A DNA stretch of 63,859 bases, counting the filler, from Atractiella rhizophila (taxonomy: Eukaryota): the NCBI GenBank assembly GCA_021432655.1. It is 9 parts of 9 records of this genome, joined end to end, with 100 filler letters (N's around TTAATTAATTAA, not from the genome) between each part and the next. Parts side by side here need not be neighbours in the genome. Positions count along the whole stretch, not along the records: positions 41,358 to 49,475 come from MU272169.1; 8 more parts are not named here. One strand, written 5' to 3'. Shown here piece after piece: positions 8,213 through 61,450 of the stretch (positions are counted from its first letter, which is position 1; every line of letters starts with the position of its first letter). The notes under the pieces are model-generated. The model saw only the letters and a program-made list of their open reading frames with translations. It was not told the origin of the DNA and made no database searches. The translations under genes were made by a program, and so were the position numbers.

Positions 8213-8312
8213 NNNNNNNNNNNNNNNNNNNNNNNNNNNNNNNNNNNNNNNNNNNNTTAATTAATTAANNNNNNNNNNNNNNNNNNNNNNNNNNNNNNNN
8301 NNNNNNNNNNNN
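8213..8312. other. Artificial contig spacer (44N-TTAATTAATTAA-44N); identical copies at 16518-16617, 24772-24871, 33016-33115, 41258-41357, 49476-49575, 57683-57782, 61351-61450
   Basis: Identical 100-nt structure eight times; the 12-mer puts stops in all six frames; genes are cut off at these points. Confidence 0.98.
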
Positions 8313-16517: not shown

Positions 16518-16617
16518 NNNNNNNNNNNNNNNNNNNNNNNNNNNNNNNNNNNNNNNNNNNNTTAATTAATTAANNNNNNNNNNNNNNNNNNNNNNNNNNN
16601 NNNNNNNNNNNNNNNNN

Positions 16618-24771: not shown

Positions 24772-24871
24772 NNNNNNNNNNNNNNNNNNNNNNNNNNNNN
24801 NNNNNNNNNNNNNNNTTAATTAATTAANNNNNNNNNNNNNNNNNNNNNNNNNNNNNNNNNNNNNNNNNNNN

Positions 24872-33012: not shown

Positions 33013-35013
33013 TGGNNNNNNNNNNNNNNNNNNNNNNNNNNNNNNNNNNNNNNNNNNNNTTAATTAATTAANNNNNNNNNNNNNNNNNNNNNNNNNNNNN
33101 NNNNNNNNNNNNNNNTTTGCGGATTTTGCGCACCCTTGTCTCCTCCCTACAATCCACTCAAACAGGTTACCGTCCAACGAGTTGTTGACTGACCACAGCA
33201 ACATTTCGGGACATGATTGGATAGACCTTACACTTGAATTGGGGCAAGAGAGATTTGGGATATTGTGTATATTTTTGCAGAAAATCACTATTCTGTACAA
33301 CACCATATTTTTCTTAATAACTTACAGAGATGTGCAGTAATCATCTTAGCGTTTATAAGTGAAATGTGCGTATGGGTGAGGAGAATCTGAATCCAGAATT
33401 TCTAAGAGATTGGTACAGTTTTGGGAGACTTTAATATGTAGTGTTAAAAATCCTGATCTCGTTAAAGTTCCTGATCCCACACAGGTATCGCGCGGGGTCT
33501 CTGAAGCCGCAAGCGCTCTGCACCACGAGGCGGCACCAGAGAAGTGGAGTCAAGACTCGGTAGGCCTGGATTCCTTTTTGCCTCGTCGGGCTGATTGGAT
33601 GTGAGGTTGAGCCCCTTGTCCTTCTAATAGATGAAGAAGATTTCTGAGTTTTCGAAGCCATCTTGGATAGACGTAGACGCCTTCGCCTCTGAAGGAGTTG
33701 AAGGAAATCTACTTTGTACCGATATTTATCGCAAAGCTTTACGTAAAGCCTATTGAGTGAGATTGAGGTAGTTTTTGAAGTCAGTTGATGTTTTGAGGGA
33801 GAGAGTTCCTCATCTCCTCTTCTCCAATTGGTACTAATCTTTCGTTCGGACGGCCCACCAACACTTTCACCTGCCTGGACAACACACCCCACTGAGTCGG
33901 ATCCATGAAACGTTAAAGAGCATCAATTGGTCAACTGAAGATAGGACCCTTTCCTGTCGATCAAGACGCCCGAACTAGAGGATGCTTCAATTACATAAAG
34001 GTCCATGGCTGAGGAGAGGATGGATTGAGATCGACTTTGCCACAGCAACCACAGTCCATCAAAGTAACACAGACAGATCAGAGCTTAAGCATAAATGCAG
34101 CATATAAAAGAGCTACGTCGCTTCAGCTCTACCGACCCCTACTTATCTCGTAAATCAGTCTCCAATGGATCAAGGCTGTTTAGAAGTTATAGGAAATTCA
34201 GTGAGGAGCAACTGTTGATTCTATTGTTAGGGCTGAATAGAATGAAATTACAATGGGGTGAAGAACAGCTTTATATACTTCAAGACAGGTGGCAAAATGA
34301 GGAATCACAGTAAGTCTAGAATATTCACGAATAAGTGCGCCGCACCGTGGCAATGGACTTGCTCAAATCCTGACAGCAACCAAAGGTCAGTTACATACAA
34401 CCTTACAAAGCACGGATTCTAATGATGAGAATGCATTTCAGCACAACCATAGAGGAAGACAGAGAACCAAATGTTTTCCCAATTCAAAACAAGCACTCCA
34501 TATAGCGCTTACACGACTAATGGACTGCTTTTGGCATTATCATAGAGAGAACAGTGTTGCTGATGCCGAAGGTACGTGGATTGCAAAGTCCAAGCTCTGG
34601 GTATTAAAGGAAATACAGTATCATGGAAAAAGGACCCGAAAACGACAATACCTGCATTGAAGGCGTTAGTTTCCTTACTTACAAACCGTCCAACAAGCCT
34701 AATGCAAAGCAAATGGCAAGAGGAGTGAATGTATGGAGGACAAAATTTGAGGAGGTTTGGCCTCCCGGGTCTTTCTTGGCGGAACAATTCTATTTAAGAA
34801 GGAATCCAGAGATGTATATTGTATGTGAATCGAGAGAAAAATCAGCATCTAGAATATTCTTCTGTTACCACCTATTCCCGTTATCTTGTTTCTTATGAGT
34901 CTATTGTTTCTTGAACATTCTAGAATACTTTCTTAACATGTATATAAAGCGTGTAAAGAATGAAGTAATCGTTATTTCCCGTTCTACAATAACACAACAG
35001 AACTGAGAAGAGG

Positions 35014-40043: not shown

Positions 40044-41859
40044 CTTCAACAAAACACAACGAAACCGAATATAACCAACTTGAATGAGCTCATCAAACCT
40101 GGCGAATCCTTCGTCGAGTGGCAGTGGCAGAAAGAGGGTTAGGGCGCTGGTCCGACGAACGCTGTCTGCAGCTATTCAGTGAACTCCACAAATGCTGTCA
40201 ATATAACTTGCCGGAGATTTCAATTTCAACCTGCGCCTTGGACCTTTGGTTTTTGCTTCCCAGATCCAGCCACTCCCTCACGTTCAAGCCTCCACCGTCT
40301 GGCTATCATCCCACCAATTTCACGTCCTCCCACCTTCTCAGTACCCTTCTTCCCACTATGATCCTTGGGACCATGTTTTCCTTTGTCAACCAACTCGGTC
40401 CCTCTCCTCCTCCCTGCTTGGCATCCCTATGTCTCAGCCCCTCCTTGACAACATTGAGCTTCCAAATCCTTGTCCTCAGATCATTCCTGACCCTGGTCTC
40501 CTCTGTCCCAGATTGGGAACCTAGACAAGCTTGATATGGTTCATTATGTGAGGACAGCATATGGGGACCTTTCTGCTACTGTTGAAGCAGTGCTAAATGA
40601 GATCTGGGGTCTGGTTTGGCAGCTGGCTGAGGAAGGTGACACCATGGGTTTTCAGTATCTTGTTGACTTCGCAAATGAAGTGATCTTCACCACCCTCAAT
40701 ATAGTTGGCAATAGGACTCTTGGCTCTTGCCACGCCTTGGACATCCAGTCCTCCCTGATCATTGCCTTCAGATGATCAGTCAGTTGCCCCCATCCCAATC
40801 CTCACATCACCTGCCTCTTCAAGAAATCTCGCCACTCAAATTCAAGAGCGATCAGGCAGAGGATGAAGCCACTGCTGGTTTCTTTACGCTTGGTGGGCAA
40901 CTTGCTTCTCTCTTTCGTCTTATTTGCGTCCCTTGCTGCTCTCCCCGGCATTGGGGAGATCAGCTTGTCCCCCTTGTCCCAAAACCTCACGCGAAAGTTC
41001 CTACTGCACAATCTAGCCATCATATCTCTCTCCTCGTTATCCTCCATCACTACTTTGAGATCGGTCTTCTACCAGAACTAGTGGAGCTTCTGCCACCCTC
41101 CCCAGGGTGGCTTCCGCTATGGCCGCTCCTGCCTTACACACATTCTTATAGCTGATGTGATCACAATTGATAGGCCAGGGACCATCGCCTGCTACCTCGA
41201 CTTCCCCACATGCCTTCCCTTCTATTTGTATTCCCCTTCTACTCCAGGTCAGGTCCTNNNNNNNNNNNNNNNNNNNNNNNNNNNNNNNNNNNNNNNNNNN
41301 NTTAATTAATTAANNNNNNNNNNNNNNNNNNNNNNNNNNNNNNNNNNNNNNNNNNNNTATACGCACCGCCGTCATGCAGGTTTCCTTCACCCTGAAATGA
41401 AGAAAGCACGCACTACTGAGTTGCTTTCGCCGTCGAATCTTTGGGTAAAATCCTCGAAGTCCTCCAATGTCTCGACTATCAAAGAGCAATATCTACCAGC
41501 TGGCTAGACAACGTAGCCACCTGAACAATTCCACCGAATGAATCCAGCCTCGGATGCTGATTAGCTGGGTGACGAGGGTCGGTCGAAAGGACGGCCGCTT
41601 TCTTTTCCTCTTGGTCGCTTGTGCCCTGGCTTGTCGAGGCTGGGGCAAGGGCAAGGGCGAGCGAGTTGGAGGTGATATCGAAGAATGGTCGTTTCGTCGC
41701 TTCGGTCGGCACCGAAGGTGGAAAGTGGCGCAGTCACATGCATCGATTCTTCGACCAAGACGCCTCACTCGACAGCAGCCAGCACTGAGCCACCACGCCA
41801 ACGACGCGGAATAGCTAGATTAAACGGTTAGACCGACGAAAGACTAAGAATCGATAGCA

Positions 41860-43324
41860 ATGGCAGACATCTTCGAACTGGACGGATGGGTGAATCAGCT
41901 CCTCCAGTGCAAGCAGCTCTCAGAGAACGACGTCAAGAAACTATGCGATAAGGTCCGTTCTCCTTCTCCTCATCTCCCTCATGCCGCCATCTCGAACGAA
42001 GTCTTATCATTCGGTGTGTGGTGTGCTCGCTTTGTCCGCGGCTGGATGGTTCACGTCGTGCCTGGGCGTATGGATCGGATGGGGATGAAAGGCGCGCGAG
42101 ATATTGATGGAGGAGTCGAATGTTCAACCGGTCAAGTGTCCTGTCACCGTCTGTGGTGATATCCACGGTCAATTCGTGGGTCTCCTTGCACTCCGCTTGT
42201 GCAAAAAGGTATTGAAGTGGGAATACGTCCAGCACGACCTCTCGGAACTCTTCCGGATCGGCGGCAACTCTCCAGACACCAATTACCTCTTCATGGGCGA
42301 CTATGTCGACCGTGGCTACTACTCCGTCGAGACAGTTACCCTGCTCGTGACGCTCAAAGTGAGGTACAGGGAGAGGGTCACCATCTTGAGAGGCAACCAT
42401 GAATCTCGACAGATCACTCAAGTCTATGGATTCTACGACGAATGTCTGAGGAAATACGGAAACGCAAACGTTTGGAAATTCTTCACCGATCTCTTCGATT
42501 ATCTGCCCCTCACTGCCCTGATCGATGATCAGGTAGGCGTCCTTTCTCTCCCTAACCTTAATACTTTGCCTCCTTTCAAACCTAACGTCATCATCAGAAT
42601 ATTCTGTCTTCACGGCGGCCTCTCCCCCTCCATAGACACCCTCGACCACATCCGCTCCATCGAACGCATTCAAGAGGTCCCTCACGAAGGTCCGATGTGC
42701 GACCTCCTCTGGTCCGACCCCGACGATCGTTGTGGATGGGGTATCTCGCCCCGTGGCGCCGGATACACTTTTGGGCAGGACATCAGTGAAGCCTTCAACC
42801 ACAACAATGGCTTGACATTGGTGGCGAGGGCACATCAGGTGCGTTTATCCTTTCTCTGGCGACGGAGCGGTGTGGGATGAAGCTCCTTTCGTCCAATACG
42901 GATTATTCTTCCAGTATCCCCAAGCAGAGGATGGGATGACTGACAGATTGTTGTTGTGACAGCTCGTGATGGAGGGCTTCAACTGGTCGCACGAAAAGAA
43001 CGTGGTCACGATCTTCTCCGCCCCCAACTATTGCTACCGATGCGGCAACCAGGCGGCGATCATGGAGCTGGACGAGAAGCTCCAATACACCTTGTCAGTC
43101 CTCCCTCGTTTATTCCCCTCATCCCTATCCCCCCCTCTCCCCTTTACCCGATCTCGGTCTTGGTGACTGATCCCATCTGCGATCGACAGCCTCCAGTTTG
43201 ACCCTGCACCGAGGACCGGGGAACCGTTGGTCTCGCGGAGAGTACCGGACGTGAGTTCATCCCTTCCTTCTTGTCTCCTTGATGGGATGGGAAATTGATT
43301 GATTGGGTACAGTATTTCCTCTAA
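41860..43324 (+). CDS. PPH21: Protein phosphatase 2A catalytic subunit, multi-exon
   Basis: [48 protein letters not shown]-terminal RRVPD-YFL*. Confidence 0.97.
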
Positions 43325-44051
43325 TAGTCGTCCCTAATTTCCCTTCGGCCATCCTCCTTGTCACGCTGTCACCTCATTGAACACATCACTACCTCCCGAT
43401 TTCCGATCACAATCCGTCCCCGAAAAGAAAATAAAACGACGAACAAAATCCGTACTGCCGATCGAGCACAAGAAGAAGAAAAAAGAAGGAATAAATTCAC
43501 TGTTTGAAGCAGAAGAAGAAGTATTGATTGGTTGGTTGGCATCGAATCTTTCAAGTCTAATCGAGTACAATCTCAAAGAAGAGGAACATTTCAAGTCTGA
43601 GTCTGATGATGTTGGATGTACATGTGCCTCGGTTTCTGTTCCAAGTTCGTCCCCTTACTACTACTATATTCTTTACTCTGTAGACTCTTTCCTTCTTCCC
43701 TTCCCTTCCCCCCTTTTTTATATTTCCCTCTCTCGACAATTTTGTTGGTGTGCGTACCCTTGGTCAATGAACTGGCTTTTGAACCAGGATGTGAGGCATT
43801 GGACTATAGATATTCACATTTGCGACATCAGCATGAATCTTAACGATCTCAACAGGTATGGTATTCACTCAAATTCAGATCGGATAGATGGATAGGATAA
43901 ATCCCTGGTCAAAAAATGGGGCACGTGCAAAGTACTGATGCCGGAAGCAAACTCTCGAGGAGGGAACTTTCCAGAGTTCGCGTCGTCTGTGTGCAGAAGA
44001 ACGACCAACACCTAACCCTCACTCTTCCCATCCGCTACATATCCTTTCTAA

Positions 44052-45093
44052 ATGTCAGCCACTCCCACCGCCCAGCCCGAAGTGCTCTGGGCACAGCGAT
44101 CGAGGCAGGTCATTTTCTGGTCCCTCGTCAAATGAACAACTTTTATTGATGTTCGATGTGGTGGCTCGCAGCGATGTGGACGCTAACAGGAACGTCATCT
44201 GGCTCACCATCTCCGTACCTGACCTGGATCCGAGTTCTGTCAAGGTGGAATGGACGAATCCTTCCCATCTCAGATTCGAAGGCACTTCGAACCCTCCGCA
44301 CATGCAGAAAGGCTCGACAGCTTCTCAGGTCGAGAAGAAACACTTTGTGTTCGATTACGACCTCTTTGGAGAGGTGGAGGAAGTGACAGAAAAGAGGAGG
44401 CTGACAAATAAGAGCTTGATTTTGACGGTTAAGAAGAAGGAGCTGACGGAGGAGTATTGGCCAAGGTTGATCAAGGAGAAGAAGAAGGTTCAAACCATCA
44501 AGTACGCTTCTTTCTCGTGTTGTTCTTAGACCGGGGTGGAGTGTTCATCATCCTTTTTCACGGACAGAACCGATTTTTCCAAGGTATACGGGTTATTATA
44601 CTCTTGACCATGTTGCTGAAAGTCCAAGTGTAGTGGAAGGATCAAGATGAGCAGAACGATGAAGAGGAGCCGGAAGAGGACGTGGGAGGCATGGGAGGTA
44701 TGGGAGGCATGCCTGGAATGGGAGGAGGCGGAGATATGGGAGGCATGAATCGTACGTCGTTTAGCTATCTTCCAACTCGCGAGCCTTACCAATTTTCTCA
44801 TCAGCGGAAGACATGGCAAGTACGTTTATACTTTGATCTCCCTCTGCTACGACCATAATAATGTCTGGGGCATGTAGAAATGATGGAACAGTTCAAGGCT
44901 GGAGGAGGTGTTGGAGGAGATGCTGATTTCGGAGACGATTCGGATGAGGAATTTGAGGACGATGAAGAAGATGAAGAAGGAGAGGGTAAGGAGAAGAAGA
45001 AGGATGACGATGCCGATCTTCCCCCTCTAGAAGTTCGTCCTTATTCCTCCTCTCCCTCCCCTTGTCCGCTTACTTCTATTTTCGCAACAGTGA
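44052..45093 (+). CDS. SBA1: Hsp90 co-chaperone p23 (Sba1/Wos2), multi-exon
   Basis: PEVLWAQRS, IWLTISVPD, EYWPRLIKEK, TDFSK-WKDQDEQ, GGM-rich and acidic tail. Confidence 0.92.
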
Positions 45094-45862
45094 CACCTTA
45101 CATGATCGAGGACTTGCTTGGATCGAACGCTCTTGAAACTCGCCTTACACCGTCTGTTGTGTAGCTATCGACAAGAAATAGCGAAAATAAAATGTCCCAT
45201 TTATTGTTACATCAGCTCACATCCTTCAAGTCGCATGCTCGGATTCATCTCTCCATCGGGAGCCTGATCAAAAGTAGCTGAATTACGCAACCGTCCATTC
45301 AAACAGTCTCAATATCCGACGTCTATGTGTTTGAAAGAGAGCGATAAATATACGTAGGATAAGGTGTTGTCACAGGCACTGAATAAATGAAGCGGTACAG
45401 GATGTCGATGATGAGCCTGAGACGGGAGCTACAAAGGAAGTAAAGCAAGAACAGCAAAAAACGGCCGTGTGTTTCAACTTCTCGAGATTGTCCAATTCCA
45501 CGAGAATGAGGCGGAAGATTAGGGAGCAAAGATGGGACACGAGTGTGTGCCGATATCATCTCTCTGAAAAACGATGATATGGACGATGTTGAAGGGTCGT
45601 TGATGGGGGCAGGGAAGAATATGAAGGAGCGTAGACGGTGAGAAAGAAATGTGTGATTTGAAGGTGGTGACGGCCGAACTTGGAGAAAGGAGAGTGTAAG
45701 TTAAAGAGAAGGTGAGCGCTGACGAGCTGTGGTCCATGGTGCGAGAAACATCTAAAACGGAAAGGGAACGAAGAACAGAGTCCCTTCGCACGTAGTCAGC
45801 ATTTCATTTCGACGGGCTGAGAGAATAAGAATGGCGCACAGGGATTCCTACAAGGAATGAGT

Positions 45863-46968
45863 TTAGGACATCGGGGGATAGTCTTCGTCTTCCTTCGGCA
45901 GCCTCCGCTGAACCACCACAAATAATATCAGCAGGACTGCAAACGCCTGATGGCAGAAAGGAAGGCGAACTTTGCCTAGCCCGACTCCGAGACTTGTTGT
46001 ATCCAGACCAACCGTGGCATTGACTGTGATACCAAGGAGGTTCACACTCTGTATAATCATTAGACGGAGGCGATGAGGGAACACAAGATACTTACCACGC
46101 TACTGTAGACCGTAATCACAGACATGGTGAGGAAAATATCGGTGCCAGTTCAAAGATGTCACTTACATGCTGCTGATAAAGACGTCAGCAAACGCACACG
46201 ATCGATGGAACAAGAGGACACTCACTCGCTGTCGGCGGAAAAATGGTCCAATTCAGCAATAACTCAGCACATGAGCGGGCAAACTCACCTGCTGTAAGAG
46301 CAACAGTGGTCAGCCCAGAAATCAACAAAAGAAAGTTTGTGGAAGAAGAACTTACTCTCTATTCAATAGAATCATGACAAGCGGGTCGCGGTGACCTTGA
46401 TAAGCAGGCTTTTGGCACTAGAAAGTATAAACTTACGCGCTGCGATGGAATGTCGCCGTCAGCACTATCCTACGTAACGGAGAGGGAGGGGAGGCTCACC
46501 AGCTGCGACGAAGAATAAGCATCGAGCACAGTCAATGTTCTGATTGCAATGATGAAACAATGCTTACCCGCTGATACAGACGTCAGCAAAGATGCAAAAA
46601 TAGAGAAACACACGTACCTTCTGCAATTCGCAATTCGAGGAATCACAAGCAGTGAGATTAGTTGATTATTTAGAGCGTTGCACTTACTCCCTATCGCGGA
46701 ATCAGACTTCAATTCTGTCAATCGAGGGACGGAGACCTACCAACTGGGGCCCACCAGAACAAGGACGCTCCGTCAGAGGTAAGAAATTATGGCATGAACA
46801 ACAGCGCACCATCGAGCCTTTATCCTCCTGTCGCCAATGTGTCAATGATTTACTCAGGTCGAAACACAAGTTAACTTACGCTGCTGGGCTAGATTCAGGG
46901 GAGGCAGCCAAGGCGAGCTGACTGGTCCACAGTCCCAAAGCGAGAGAGATGAGAGCAGCAGGGCGCAT
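45863..46968 (-). CDS. Micro-exon gene encoding a small secreted pro-peptide (~89 aa)
   Basis: Exons 46968-46880, 46827-46810, nine 3-nt exons between 46743 and 46226, 46172-46167, 46102-46096, then 46048 onward; all GT-AG; product MRPAALISLALGLWTSQLALAASPESSPAARIKARCWESGCADSDSISVSVNLLGITVNATVGLDTTSLGVGLGKRRLPKEDEDYPPMS*. Confidence 0.85.
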
Positions 46969-47956
46969 TGTGGATTTTTCGAAAGTGATGATGTACAAAA
47001 ACAAAGTGAAAGAGGCCGAAATGAAGGAGGGGAAGGGCCAGGAGCGAGCAGATCGAAAAGATAACGTCGAAGGCAGGCTGCGAGGGCGGGAAAAAGTGAG
47101 GGTGCCAGGCGGCGGGGATATTATACCACTTTTTGGACCGCTGTTCGCGAATTCGACCGCCTTGTAATTAGAAGTTTTGGCGCCGTCCGTTTACATGAAA
47201 TTGTTGCGTGCCGTTCCCCGTCCTTTCTTTGGAACGTTGAGAGCTTTCTTACTCGACAAAGGCAGAAGATGGAAGTATTCTCAGTGCTCGTTGCATTCAA
47301 GAAAGAGGATTATCCACCGTGAAGAACCACTTAGAAGATGTAACTTGAGCAGAGGCAGTGGTCAAAAAATCGTCAAGGTGATGGCAGGACAACAGTTGCT
47401 GAAGCGAGAATTTAGCGAACTCCGGACTTGGAATGGTGGAACGCCACAAGAAACTACGCCCGAAGTATTTCTGTCCTTACAACCGAGCAGGAAGGTCCTC
47501 CATTCAATCTCAGCCAATCACGCTGCCCGAGTTGATCGAAACCCGAAGAGGTTCGCAAACAGCAGCTTTGAGGTTCGTCTCTTGAGTGCTGAAAAGGAAT
47601 ACATGCTGTCTTCCCCGGCGTTCACTAAGCGAGCAGAAGTATTCGGAGGTGTGATGGACCATGTGCTAAAATCCGCAAATTTGGGACTATTCTGAACCAA
47701 TCGGGTTATTTGAAAATCATTCATTAACAAACCTTACTTTGCTTGTCCAAGGCACGTCATGTGATTCTAGGAAGCTCTGCACTTTTTGAGTGATCGCGGA
47801 GTTGGAGTTGATCGAGACTTTGGGATTGGGATCCAGTATCGAGAGAGCAGGAAAAGAGAGCTACGAACCGCAGTAAATGTTTCATTATCAGCATTTCTTC
47901 CATGCGTTAACCTGAGTTGACGAGCAGGATAAGGCACAAACATCTGTGAAATCATC

Positions 47957-49475: not shown

Positions 49476-51399
49476 NNNNNNNNNNNNNNNNNNNNNNNNN
49501 NNNNNNNNNNNNNNNNNNNTTAATTAATTAANNNNNNNNNNNNNNNNNNNNNNNNNNNNNNNNNNNNNNNNNNNNGAAGGAGAATGCCATAAGGAACTGG
49601 CAAAACCGTGACACCCTTTCTAACGCCAGCCCTTGATTCATGGTGCACGGAACCCATTGACGCCATGTACCGCTGTCTCTTCCATGTCGAGTAGCTTTTT
49701 ACAGCATAGGAGCGGCTGGGGATGTTCGCTTTGTTGCCTTCGTCTAGGGCAAGCAGTCTTCCCTTTAAGATTGAATCCGCTGATGGAACGGTGGATCAAG
49801 GTCCTGGCCTGATTGCGGCGCAACATTTGGGCCTGGCGCTGACTTGCGATCCTAAATATGGTTGGGAAAGTTGGAATAGTTGGCGGGTATGAAAAGCCGC
49901 CTAGCTGCCGAGATAATTGTGCTTTCTACAAACTGATATCCTTCCTGAGGTTTTTTAATGCATGTGCTTTGCAGACTTTCGACGATATTCTTTGATCATT
50001 CTCTTGATCGCCCGAGAAGAGGATCCGTTTGGCTTGTTCGTTCTTCTCAGTTAGAAGCGATGGACATCAGTATCATCAGTATAATTAAGCTCGATATATT
50101 GAAGCAATCAAGGCCAGGAACGGACTGTGGTCAGGCTTCCCACATTCACGGGTGTACCCGTGCTACCCACGGGCGAACCCGAAAAAGGTGTTCTAGGTTA
50201 TTTCTCAAATAAATCGACATTGACTGATACACTCTCGAGCGCGCATAGTTCATTCGTATTACTTGGCAACTTTTCTAGAGATGAAGGTTCTTGTAGATCA
50301 ACCGAAGGTTGTCGCTGCCTATGAATCCAATCCAATCTGGGAAAACAGCGTTGACAACGCATCGAGTTCTTCGTCCCATCCCCTTCGTCTGCTGCCCGTT
50401 TCCGTTACTCCATGAGTTTGACTTAGCCACCGATGCCGCAAATCACCAGTTATTTGTGGCGCATCTGTCACACATTGTACGCTTGCCACGTCGATGTTCT
50501 TAGGAAGAGAGATTCAAAACGAGTCACCCTGTGGACTTTTGTTCTTGTTGTTGTTGCCATTTTTTCTTTCTGCACCCAGTACTGGACACCCTTCTGTCAG
50601 TCACCTTTCGATCCAAACTATTTGAGCTAACTTTGAGAAGCTGTGGATAGAACCTCAATCAGGTTACCTGGTCTGTCTTCTCTCTATTTTGAGCGGCAAA
50701 CCAGACTTGAGGGTGAACACTGCGTCCCTTCTGCAACTCTCAGTGCATTTCCTGTTTTCGAAGGAGCAGGGAAATGACGTGAACGTAGGTACTTCCCTGG
50801 ATCTTGATGGGTCGACAGTGGCAGATTGTATTCTTGGTCATGCTGCACAAGCAGGTCAGACGATCTCACTCAATCTCTTCTGCACTGACACATCCATGAC
50901 AGGAAGCAGCGTCCGACGTGACTGCCTCCCGTCTCACTATGTATCGATGGGATAAACTAACGATGGTCGACCCGGCCGATTCACTTCGCCAGGCAGACTA
51001 ATGTTCCCATGTGCTTCCTTCAAATTGGTCTACTTCCTCTCCTCCCAAGATATGGCGTGTCGCATCGCTGGTACGTCTGCTCCCCTATTGACGTCACTTT
51101 TGACATTCGGATTGTAGCTGTCATTCTTCTCCCACAAGCATCTGTAAACAGGTAATGCAGGCTTTTTGCCACTGGCTCAGCATCAGTGACAACAACAGCG
51201 CGCTTTCCTTCACCCTTGCCCGCATTCAGAGAACTCAACGGTGCAACTCATCGCCCAACAAAATGACAGACAATATTCCAGATGGTGAAGCTGTTCCCGA
51301 CATCTCGGATGCTGAGTTTTCCTGTCAGGTTGTGTGGATATCATCAATCATCAACATTTCCATCCTGACTGAAATCACAGGAGGCTAAGCTATAGTTAT

Positions 51400-55900: not shown

Positions 55901-57782
55901 TGAAGAGTCGACGATGGAAACTCCCGAAGCAAATTTGTATGGAAGGATTGTTTGGCCTGGGATTTCCTCATGCAAGGTTGGAATGCCGGGATTGCGTGCG
56001 ACCTTGCTGCAGTAACAACCTTCAACAGAAAACAGTCCAATGACCTGATCCCGCTCTTGCTTCCTTATTTCGGGATCACGCGGACGTTTGTCACATCTCT
56101 ATAAATCAGGTGAGTAAGAACGAGAGTAATGACAAGAATTTAGCCGGCTGCTGACACCGGCTCCTATCGGAAGGAGCATTCCGATTTGATCCGATTCGAC
56201 GAACCCCATGGCAACCCCGATGGCAAATTCCGACCAACTCGTGTTTTGAGGGTTAGGGTCACCAGGCTGTCACCAGGTCGATAAACTGTCAATCAACAGA
56301 AACGACGACTCTGTTTTGATCATCTGCGATTGTGAATTTCTGGTTCTCAGGACTCACCGTAGCGTGCGAAAGAGAGTCTATAAAGATCGAGCGCTTTATT
56401 ATGGACGACAAAGACACCAATCTGCTCCTGATCTAATGGGGTGACTAGCACATTCATGACACCGACATGGAGGTGGAGATGCAGTTGGAAATAGTTGGCA
56501 TTGTGAGGGACGTTACGCGGCAATCCAAAGGACAGACACAAGTGATTTCATTCCATCATGATCAAGCGTGCAAGATGGACTGATCTGCGCCGTGCTACCA
56601 GTTCGACACGCGACAGGGAGCTAAAATTAAGGAAATGATCCAAGCGAAATATAAGGAGAGCCACCCGGGGCACTGGCACCTCGTTTTCAACGTAACAGGC
56701 CAGGCGTTCTCTATCGGGGATAACAGTGGGTGTTCAATCGTAGCAAAGTCGTTTATGGTTCCTCATCAGCAGCTAGCGTATAGAACCAGGGACGCGATTT
56801 TCATTTCATTTCGGTTCAACGGACATTGTAAGGGATCCCTTGCGGCTGTCCTTGTTCTGATCTGATAATGCCTGGTTGCCGCCTTGTACAAGTTGGTGTA
56901 CCAGTCTCCTGGGGAATAACTTGTTCGCCCACGTCACCGTCGCTTGGGAAGCCTGTATCCAGCAACATTTGTAACCGTGTCCCAACAGCATACGAAATGT
57001 CAAATCAGAGGCTGTAATAAGATAAACCTAATAGCAGTGATGCGGATGATGAGGTCAAAGCCTTGCGCAACAGGTAAGACATAAATTCGTGATTGCCGAA
57101 CGAAACTTAAGCCTGAGCCTCGTCAACATCTTGTCTGTATGTGGTGACCTAAGATTCACTCCGTCGAGCTCTTCCTGACTAGGAACAGCGTTGATGCGTT
57201 CTACCCCCTCTCCATCGAACTCCTGTCTCCATCAGCAGCCTTGGTAAACAGGCGAGATAGCTTCATCAAAAAGAAAATGTAACATTTGTGAAAGTTCCTC
57301 CTCCGCGGCCTATGTCCCGTCATCGGGAAGGGCTGCTCCAGAACGTGTTAGTAAGGGATGATGGTGGAGACAAGCTCCGTTTGGCTGCCTGAGGTTTGTG
57401 TTCAGCCAAGTATTTTCTTGGAGTTTGCCACGACATGAGCAGTGATGGCCATAATACTTGGACTTTGAATTTGACAAGATACGGATCTTAAGCACTGCAA
57501 AGCCTCAAAAGTGATTAGAATACATTTCATTGGTACTTAAGAGAAATAACTGACAAATGTATTAGCGCTGTGAAGTGCGAGATAACAATGAGTATATCTT
57601 GCATCCTTACCTCTAAAAGCCATCCGTTCTTGGGGTGAGCTTAATTCCCAGGCCTCATTTGGTTGGAAGGCCCACTTTATCANNNNNNNNNNNNNNNNNN
57701 NNNNNNNNNNNNNNNNNNNNNNNNNNTTAATTAATTAANNNNNNNNNNNNNNNNNNNNNNNNNNNNNNNNNNNNNNNNNNNN

Positions 57783-61350: not shown

Positions 61351-61450
61351 NNNNNNNNNNNNNNNNNNNNNNNNNNNNNNNNNNNNNNNNNNNNTTAATT
61401 AATTAANNNNNNNNNNNNNNNNNNNNNNNNNNNNNNNNNNNNNNNNNNNN

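Follow-up and report, generated by a model that had tools for sequence, protein, structure and literature searches.

A stretch of DNA from Atractiella rhizophila carries on its minus strand a run of nine consecutive segments of three nucleotides, each preceded by CAG or TAG and directly followed by GT. It raises the question of whether a nuclear gene can be spliced three nucleotides at a time, with every triplet kept in the mature mRNA. A sequence-only reading had proposed exactly this, and had named as the outcome that would speak against it a region left unspliced or removed wholesale. That outcome is contradicted by the RNA contigs of four public runs, in which the small exons stand in order. 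The locus was re-read within the window (the whole stretch of 63,859 nucleotides analysed, made of parts of nine genome records joined end to end) and compared with RNA contigs, protein collections and published splicing systems. The reading that we favour, with a probability of about 0.85, is that of a real, expressed nuclear gene of A. rhizophila or of a near-identical strain, in which eleven consecutive tiny exons are kept in the mature mRNA by presumably intron-defined splicing, and whose small product is probably secreted.

Layout of the gene and chance expectation

The gene comprises 16 exons and 15 short spliceosomal introns on the minus strand, from 46968 to 45614 (about 1.3-1.35 kb; Table 1). 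Fourteen of the 15 introns interrupt a coding sequence of only 270 nt, and the encoded product has 89 amino acids. When the minus strand is read from 47300 to 45600, 13 canonical GT..YAG introns of 47-78 nt separate an exon of 18 nt, the nine exons of 3 nt, one of 6 nt and one of 7 nt. The nine triplets and the 6-nt and 7-nt exons fit in 650 nt of one gene, the array as a whole spanning about 760 nt, and exons 2 to 12 supply only 51 of the 270 coding nucleotides. On re-reading, the coordinates and letters proposed earlier for all eleven small exons proved correct. The same is true of the earlier description of their introns as 47-78 nt long, with consensus donors and mostly with branch motifs. 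All 13 chain introns are of the GT..YAG type, and their donors are GTAAGT in six cases, GTGAGT in two, and GTAGGT, GTACGT, GTAAGC, GTGAGC and GTGCGC in one each. A YTRAY branch-like motif is found in 10 of the 13, and is absent from introns 8, 10 and 12.

Introns 1 to 12 all lie in phase 2, so that residues 36 to 45 each straddle an exon junction. Exons 2 to 12 (18 nt, nine of 3 nt, and 6 nt) begin and end in phase 2, which makes any subset of the nine 3-nt exons skippable in frame. The 7-nt exon is asymmetric.

The 3' part of the gene differs from the earlier description, in which the last exon was continuous. An intron of 63 nt (45970-45908) is spliced out of it in all four of the runs described below, and an intron of 56 nt in the 3'UTR is spliced out in two. 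With these two introns, both missed earlier, the product is reduced to 89 amino acids. In the region of the 3'UTR intron, X1, X2 and X5 have variant joints with other letters between, which are probably due to strain divergence. Intron 14 is itself in frame and free of stop codons. If retained, it would add a hydrophobic stretch of 21 residues, and the product would be anchored in the membrane instead of secreted; the chance of a stop-free in-frame intron of this kind is about 1 in 8, so the feature may mean nothing. A C-terminal membrane anchor on the product was considered and rejected, the hydrophobic stretch being intron 14, which is out in all four runs.

The bare motif is not rare. YAG-NNN-GTRNG has 39 matches on both strands of the window, against 26 +/- 5 in 200 mononucleotide shuffles, and 10 of the 19 minus-strand matches fall in 46169-46743. 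In the search for chains, a donor GTRNGY had to open an intron of 42-95 nt with YAG at its end, and the next donor had to lie 1-9 nt further on. One chain of 12 introns was found, at this gene, against a longest chain of 2-4 in each of 30 shuffles, and this search returned no other chain of three or more on either strand of the window. The chain is therefore unique in the window and lies far beyond what shuffled sequence produces. The array is not a tandem repeat, Tandem Repeats Finder giving only a 15-nt trifle, and Rfam returned 0 matches at E <= 0.1 for the array region. Short introns and small exons as such are ordinary in the window; in the neighbouring gene, exons of 14 and 15 nt are found along with introns of 58-67 nt.

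Table 1. Exons and introns of the gene, in order of transcription (positions along the window)
Feature	Position	Strand	Description
5'UTR, upstream of exon 1 coding part	contigs extend to 47076 (X5), 47260 (X1)	-	
Exon 1, coding part	46880..46968	-	ATG at 46968; 89 nt; signal-peptide-like start
Intron 1	46828..46879	-	52 nt, GTAAGT..CAG; uncovered in X19, X1, X5
Exon 2	46810..46827	-	18 nt; spelled in X1 and X2 loose ends
Intron 2	46744..46809	-	66 nt, GTGCGC..CAG
Exon 3	46741..46743	-	TTG; X1 and X2 loose ends
Intron 3	46691..46740	-	50 nt, GTAGGT..TAG
Exon 4	46688..46690	-	GGA; X1 loose end
Intron 4	46621..46687	-	67 nt, GTAAGT..CAG; branch-like CTAAT 37 nt from 3' end; retained in X2 partly spliced contigs
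Exon 5	46618..46620	-	AAG; X1 loose end and X2 joint
Intron 5	46571..46617	-	47 nt, GTACGT..CAG
Exon 6	46568..46570	-	CGG; X19 and X1 loose ends
Intron 6	46503..46567	-	65 nt, GTAAGC..CAG
Exon 7	46500..46502	-	CTG; X19 and X1 loose ends
Intron 7	46440..46499	-	60 nt, GTGAGC..CAG
Exon 8	46437..46439	-	CGC; X19 and X1 loose ends
Intron 8	46359..46436	-	78 nt, longest, GTAAGT..TAG; no YTRAY; 5' part retained in one X2 partly spliced contig
Exon 9	46356..46358	-	AGA; X19 and X1 loose ends
Intron 9	46292..46355	-	64 nt, GTAAGT..CAG
Exon 10	46289..46291	-	CAG; TAG in run X1
Intron 10	46229..46288	-	60 nt, GTGAGT..CAG; no YTRAY
Exon 11	46226..46228	-	CGA; X19 and X1 loose ends
Intron 11	46173..46225	-	53 nt, GTGAGT..CAG
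Exon 12	46167..46172	-	6 nt, CAGCAT; X19 and X1 loose ends; present in public model P0003
Intron 12	46103..46166	-	64 nt, GTAAGT..CAG; no YTRAY; P0002 start ATG inside (46125)
Exon 13	46096..46102	-	7 nt, TAGCGTG; X19 and X1 loose ends
Intron 13	46049..46095	-	47 nt, GTAAGT..CAG
Exon 14	45971..46048	-	78 nt
Intron 14	45908..45970	-	63 nt, GTTCGC..CAG; out in all four runs (joint 45907/45971), also in P0002 and P0003
Exon 15	45840..45907	-	68 nt; stop codon TAA 45865-45863
Intron 15, 3'UTR	45784..45839	-	56 nt, GTGCGC..AAG-type end (GT..AG); spliced out in X19, X2
Exon 16, 3'UTR	45614..45783	-	lower end provisional; X5 contig 23 extends to 45614

Joined and partly spliced RNA

Assembled contigs from four public runs (X19, X1, X2 and X5) were compared with positions 43900-47300 of the window. 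X5 is on record as a metatranscriptome; for X19, X1 and X2 the RNA nature was inferred from the absence of intron cover. Cover is zero over 46066-46863 in X19, X1 and X5, with both flanks covered, and the neighbouring gene on the plus strand is spliced in all four runs (for example at the joint 45032/45091, with GT..AG). An uncovered intron region between covered flanks, together with introns skipped in the neighbour as well, indicates that the contigs derive from RNA. Assembled contigs are blind to strand, level, rare isoforms and the true order of intron removal.

The joined form appears both in contigs that bridge the array and in loose ends that run into it. One contig each of X2 and X5 joins 46046 to 46879 across 59 inserted letters. 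By the model, exons 1 and 14 should be 58 letters apart (18+27+6+7); adding the two unaligned letters at 46047-48 and subtracting the one absorbed at 46879 gives 59. Contig 23 of X5 (596 nt) runs from 45614 to 47076, that is from the 3'UTR to the 5'UTR, across all junctions. The letters of the loose ends were matched by eye to the hand-spliced exon order. In X19, the 30 letters behind 46049 correspond, as complements, to the 7-nt exon, of which the first letter was absorbed, and then to the 6-nt exon, CGA, CAG, AGA, CGC, CTG and CGG. In X1, the loose end before 46879 (56 letters, of which the last 30 are shown) gives the complement of CGG, AAG, GGA, TTG and exon 2. Between them, these two loose ends cover the eleven small exons completely and in the order of the genome. 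The first half is present in X1 too, where exon 10 reads TAG instead of CAG; this is the only difference seen within a 3-nt exon, and the change, from GAC to GAT, is synonymous (Asp43). A second loose end of X19, behind 46046, has the differences found in P0003 (..SISVDVN..), one of the public protein models discussed below, and contains at least five of the 3-nt exons. Contig word depth in X19 is in the hundreds. No shortened or exon-skipped form was found among the contigs of the four runs, contigs being prone to drop rare variants.

Each of the eleven small exons is thus flanked on both sides by GT..YAG introns and has its letters in order in RNA contigs, as expected of a constitutive spliceosomal microexon, a class with an upper length of 30 nt, taken here as 15 nt. 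The two central proposals of the sequence-only reading, that the 3-nt segments are true exons and that splicing by hand yields the frame ..RIKAR-CWESGCADSDSISV-SVNLL.., are borne out by the bridging contigs and loose ends, which retain the segments and carry the frame.

Partly spliced forms are present in X2, at a depth of only about 3. One contig has lost introns 5, 6 and 7 and keeps introns 4 and 8 (5 letters at the joint 46440/46618). In a contig with a loose end at 46691, splicing has removed introns 2 and 3 and left intron 4, and an unspliced piece covers 46411-46526. These forms indicate that removal proceeds intron by intron and not strictly from 5' to 3'.

Intron definition and steric exclusion are established for short-intron fungi, and a mechanism for this gene can be framed in those terms. 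Each intron of 47-78 nt would be recognised through its own donor, its own acceptor and, mostly, its own branch-like motif. With recognition across the intron, exon length would become irrelevant. The footprint of the spliceosome on the flanking exon is far above 3 nt. Since two spliceosomes cannot sit 3 nt apart, adjacent introns would not be processed at once, and neighbouring introns would be removed one after another, each 5' splice site being used at a time when its upstream neighbour is either not yet engaged or already gone. The order of removal would be variable, and the last to go may be introns 4 and 8, whose branch signals are the weakest.

Product, public models and rival readings

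Judged by eye, the N-terminus of the predicted product starts with basic residues, continues into a hydrophobic core and closes with an Ala-x-Ala-like end. The remainder includes a C-x4-C loop, one N-x-T site, a K-R-R site and an acidic tail, and both cysteines (residues 36 and 41) are built from small exons. The gene probably encodes a lineage-restricted small protein of 89 amino acids, predicted to be secreted, of a root endophyte. Eight coding differences were counted among the runs, of which three are synonymous and five are conservative replacements; they may be taken as a weak sign of constraint.

Relatives are few. The translation of the last open stretch (P0001) matches only two proteins among 5.8 billion, both from A. 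rhizophila, and a third A. rhizophila protein clusters with one of these two. An exhaustive phmmer search with P0003 against 1.84 billion representatives found only P0002, and the translation of the last exon had no match when compared with longer proteins. In Pfam, no family reached a meaningful score, the best being DUF3778 with an E value of 0.21, under the cut-off. The ESM Atlas gave no usable feature match, and its own model of P0003 has a pLDDT of 0.44, which makes the structure rows meaningless. Judged by these protein comparisons, the gene is an orphan whose only relatives are the three A. rhizophila proteins.

The expectation that gene predictors would miss 3-nt exons is confirmed by the public models P0002, P0003 and P0004, from all of which they are absent. 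P0002 (KAH8914127.1, 50 aa) is identical to the locus at 46125-46096, 46048-45971 and 45907-45866. Because its start is an ATG inside intron 12, the signal peptide and every small exon are missing from it. P0003 and P0004 (80 aa, from other contigs) have the first 36 residues as in the gene; exon 2 is then followed directly by the exons of 6 and 7 nt, the nine codons being absent. An alignment artefact is the likelier source of the P0003 model, given that at least five of the 3-nt exons are present in the P0003-type transcript of X19. Public annotation of this gene family is in error: one model is missing the signal peptide, and the other nine residues, among them half of the only Cys pair. 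Exons of 3 nt are beyond the reach of spliced aligners, so the models of small secreted proteins in intron-rich fungi may suffer from a systematic error.

In one alternative, the array would be a single large intron whose internal sites are cryptic or decaying, and would be spliced out as a whole. The public models treat it in this way, and spliced aligners would report likewise; with the small exons in order in the RNA contigs of four runs, the idea is refuted and retains practically no probability. Another alternative accepts the splicing as described and denies the protein: the RNA would be non-coding or the gene decaying, the frame fortuitous, and the locus an instance of splicing noise tolerated in an intron-rich genome. 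Exons of 3 nt preserve any frame automatically, five of the eight coding differences change a residue, and an orphan without a Pfam family, whose Atlas model reaches only the pLDDT given above, is what such a locus might yield. Yet the joined frame is open for 89 codons, from a signal-peptide-like start, and stays open through the exons of 6, 7, 78 and 68 nt; a second allele or paralogue, like diverged strains, preserves both the frame and the small exons. The word depth of the X19 contigs is likewise hard to square with noise, and thirteen intact splice-site pairs would not last without selection for correct joining. We therefore hold a non-coding or decaying locus to be very unlikely.

The remaining alternative grants a coding gene and ascribes to it a diversification of the kind associated with schistosome micro-exon genes (MEGs), in which in-frame skipping of any subset of the 3-nt exons would vary the Cys loop of the secreted peptide. 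The uniform phase 2 of introns 1 to 12 would allow it, the product resembles a small secreted protein of a plant-associated fungus, and the P0003 model joins exon 2 straight to the 6-nt exon. The transcripts point the other way: no shortened contig occurs in the four runs, the sole bridging count, 59 letters, corresponds to full inclusion, and the X19 transcript of the P0003 type includes 3-nt exons that its model omits. Diversification by skipping is thus unlikely, and the suggestion of a MEG-type system made in the sequence-only reading is unsupported so far, the gene showing the full-inclusion form only, short introns and no sequence relationship to MEGs. A constitutively spliced coding gene, with all eleven small exons included, remains the preferred reading.

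Known systems and origin of the array

The closest counterparts are the microexons of another basidiomycete, Coprinopsis cinerea, in which 27 exons of 3 nt in 26 genes are described in the part of the report available (PMC12230235). The likeness is extensive: exons of 1-3 nt lie between nuclear GT-AG introns that are short, they are constitutive, annotation misses them, and the host is an intron-rich basidiomycete (PMC12230235). However, the same part of that report gives at most two exons of 3 nt per gene in C. cinerea, whereas the Atractiella gene has nine in a row, followed by exons of 6 and 7 nt (PMC12230235). According to the accessible part of a study in Trichoderma, functional microexons were previously undescribed in filamentous fungi (PMC11121469). 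Plant microexons of at most 15 nt, as outlined in excerpts from two reports, extend down to 1 nt, are conserved and constitutive, and are pervasively misannotated (PMC8831610, PMC11096116). They resemble the exons described here in being constitutive, tiny and misannotated, and are sometimes adjacent (5 nt and 12 nt); within these excerpts, at most two are adjacent and they belong to conserved housekeeping genes, in contrast to the long run in an orphan gene of Atractiella (PMC8831610, PMC11096116).

Schistosome MEGs are genes for secreted proteins with 10-20 symmetric short exons, as stated in the portion of the source at hand (10.1101/2023.06.21.545858). The Atractiella gene shares with them very short symmetric exons in the middle, a small lineage-restricted protein and resistance to annotation, and the signal-peptide first exon of MEGs may have its counterpart in exon 1 here, with its signal-peptide-like start. 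The dimensions differ: in that portion of the source MEG exons are mostly of 6-81 bp (commonest 15 bp) with introns of 0.1-5 kb, against exons of 3 nt and introns of 47-78 nt here (10.1101/2023.06.21.545858). Moreover, the central exons of MEGs are described there as alternatively spliced into many isoforms, whereas the Atractiella contigs, in which rare forms are invisible, have full inclusion only (10.1101/2023.06.21.545858). Of the features that define MEGs, the gene has the symmetric exons with lengths in multiples of 3, and has neither the long introns (0.1-5 kb) nor, by the protein searches given above, a sequence relationship to MEG proteins. It works as an ordinary constitutive set of microexons and is built like a miniature MEG.

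Recursive splicing through ratchet points and RS-exons is also similar, in that adjacent segments are removed stepwise and a 3' splice site lies next to a 5' splice site. In the part of the review available, it leaves nothing behind, or an RS-exon that is discarded (PMC6224609); the Atractiella introns are complete, and 3 nt stay at each step. A ratchet point consists of abutting AG/GT in a long intron with nothing retained, and the sites of the array, each of which retains 3 nt, are of a different kind. Stwintrons are likewise removed stepwise, but there a splice signal of the outer intron is split by the inner one. A search of the full-text literature, mostly without subscription journals, found no published report of a run of consecutive 3-nt exons, and only isolated 3-nt exons. 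The gene is among the most densely interrupted nuclear genes seen, and is an extreme form of known microexon splicing.

How such an array arose is a question of duplication of a unit, serial gain of introns or subdivision of a long intron. Introns 5 and 11 are identical at 20 of their last 21 positions, with a score of 29 against a shuffle maximum of 19.1 +/- 2.2, a value reached in 1 of 200 shuffles; the remaining intron pairs are at shuffle level. Among the introns of the gene only this pair shares a 3' end, which is not the pattern of introner-like elements or of recent tandem intron duplication. The uniform phase would be compatible with duplication of a unit of 3 nt plus intron followed by long divergence, and so would the partition of a single long intron into pieces of a length that can be spliced. 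In metagenome contigs, a search for relatives with the protein P0003 gave 595 pattern matches, 0 of them confirmed, and the exact 32-nt exon pattern gave 0 matches. The boldest extension would make the array a cassette of single-codon exons of the same phase, grown by duplication of 3 nt with a short intron and offering a root endophyte up to 2^9 forms of the Cys loop, and maybe one of many such cassettes unannotated in Atractiellomycetes; we regard it as improbable.

With nine 3-nt exons in a row and 14 introns in 270 coding nucleotides, the gene is a natural stress test of splice-site spacing and of how strict the dependence of short-intron fungi on intron definition is. Only 3 nt of upstream exon, itself just joined, are available for making each junction. 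The gene thus offers a compact substrate for the study of intron-removal order, spliceosome crowding and exon-junction marking.

Several features of the surroundings were recorded alongside. At 45614-45783 the 3'UTR of the gene seems to overlap the 3' end of the convergent neighbour, X1 contig 1 covering 44207-45762 and X5 contig 23 running from 47076 down to 45614, although contigs cannot separate the transcripts. This plus-strand neighbour, presumably a p23/wos2-like co-chaperone by the resemblance of its open reading frame text, has small exons of its own at 44568-44581 (14 letters between 44501 and 44632, in all four runs) and at 44805-44819 (15 letters, from 44751 to 44878, in X1). Both strings sit, between AG and GT, in DNA that is otherwise skipped. 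At intervals of about 8.2 kb the window contains paired runs of 44 N (8213-8312, 16518-16617, 24772-24871, 33016-33115, 41258-41357, 49476-49575, 57683-57782 and 61351-61450; 704 N in total), whose regular spacing suggests marks of masking or scaffolding and no biological feature. Also on the plus strand, at 42089-42880, a long open stretch contains GDIHGQ.., GDYVDRG.. and GNHE, which we take to be motifs of a PP2A-type Ser/Thr phosphatase catalytic subunit, an ordinary housekeeping neighbour.
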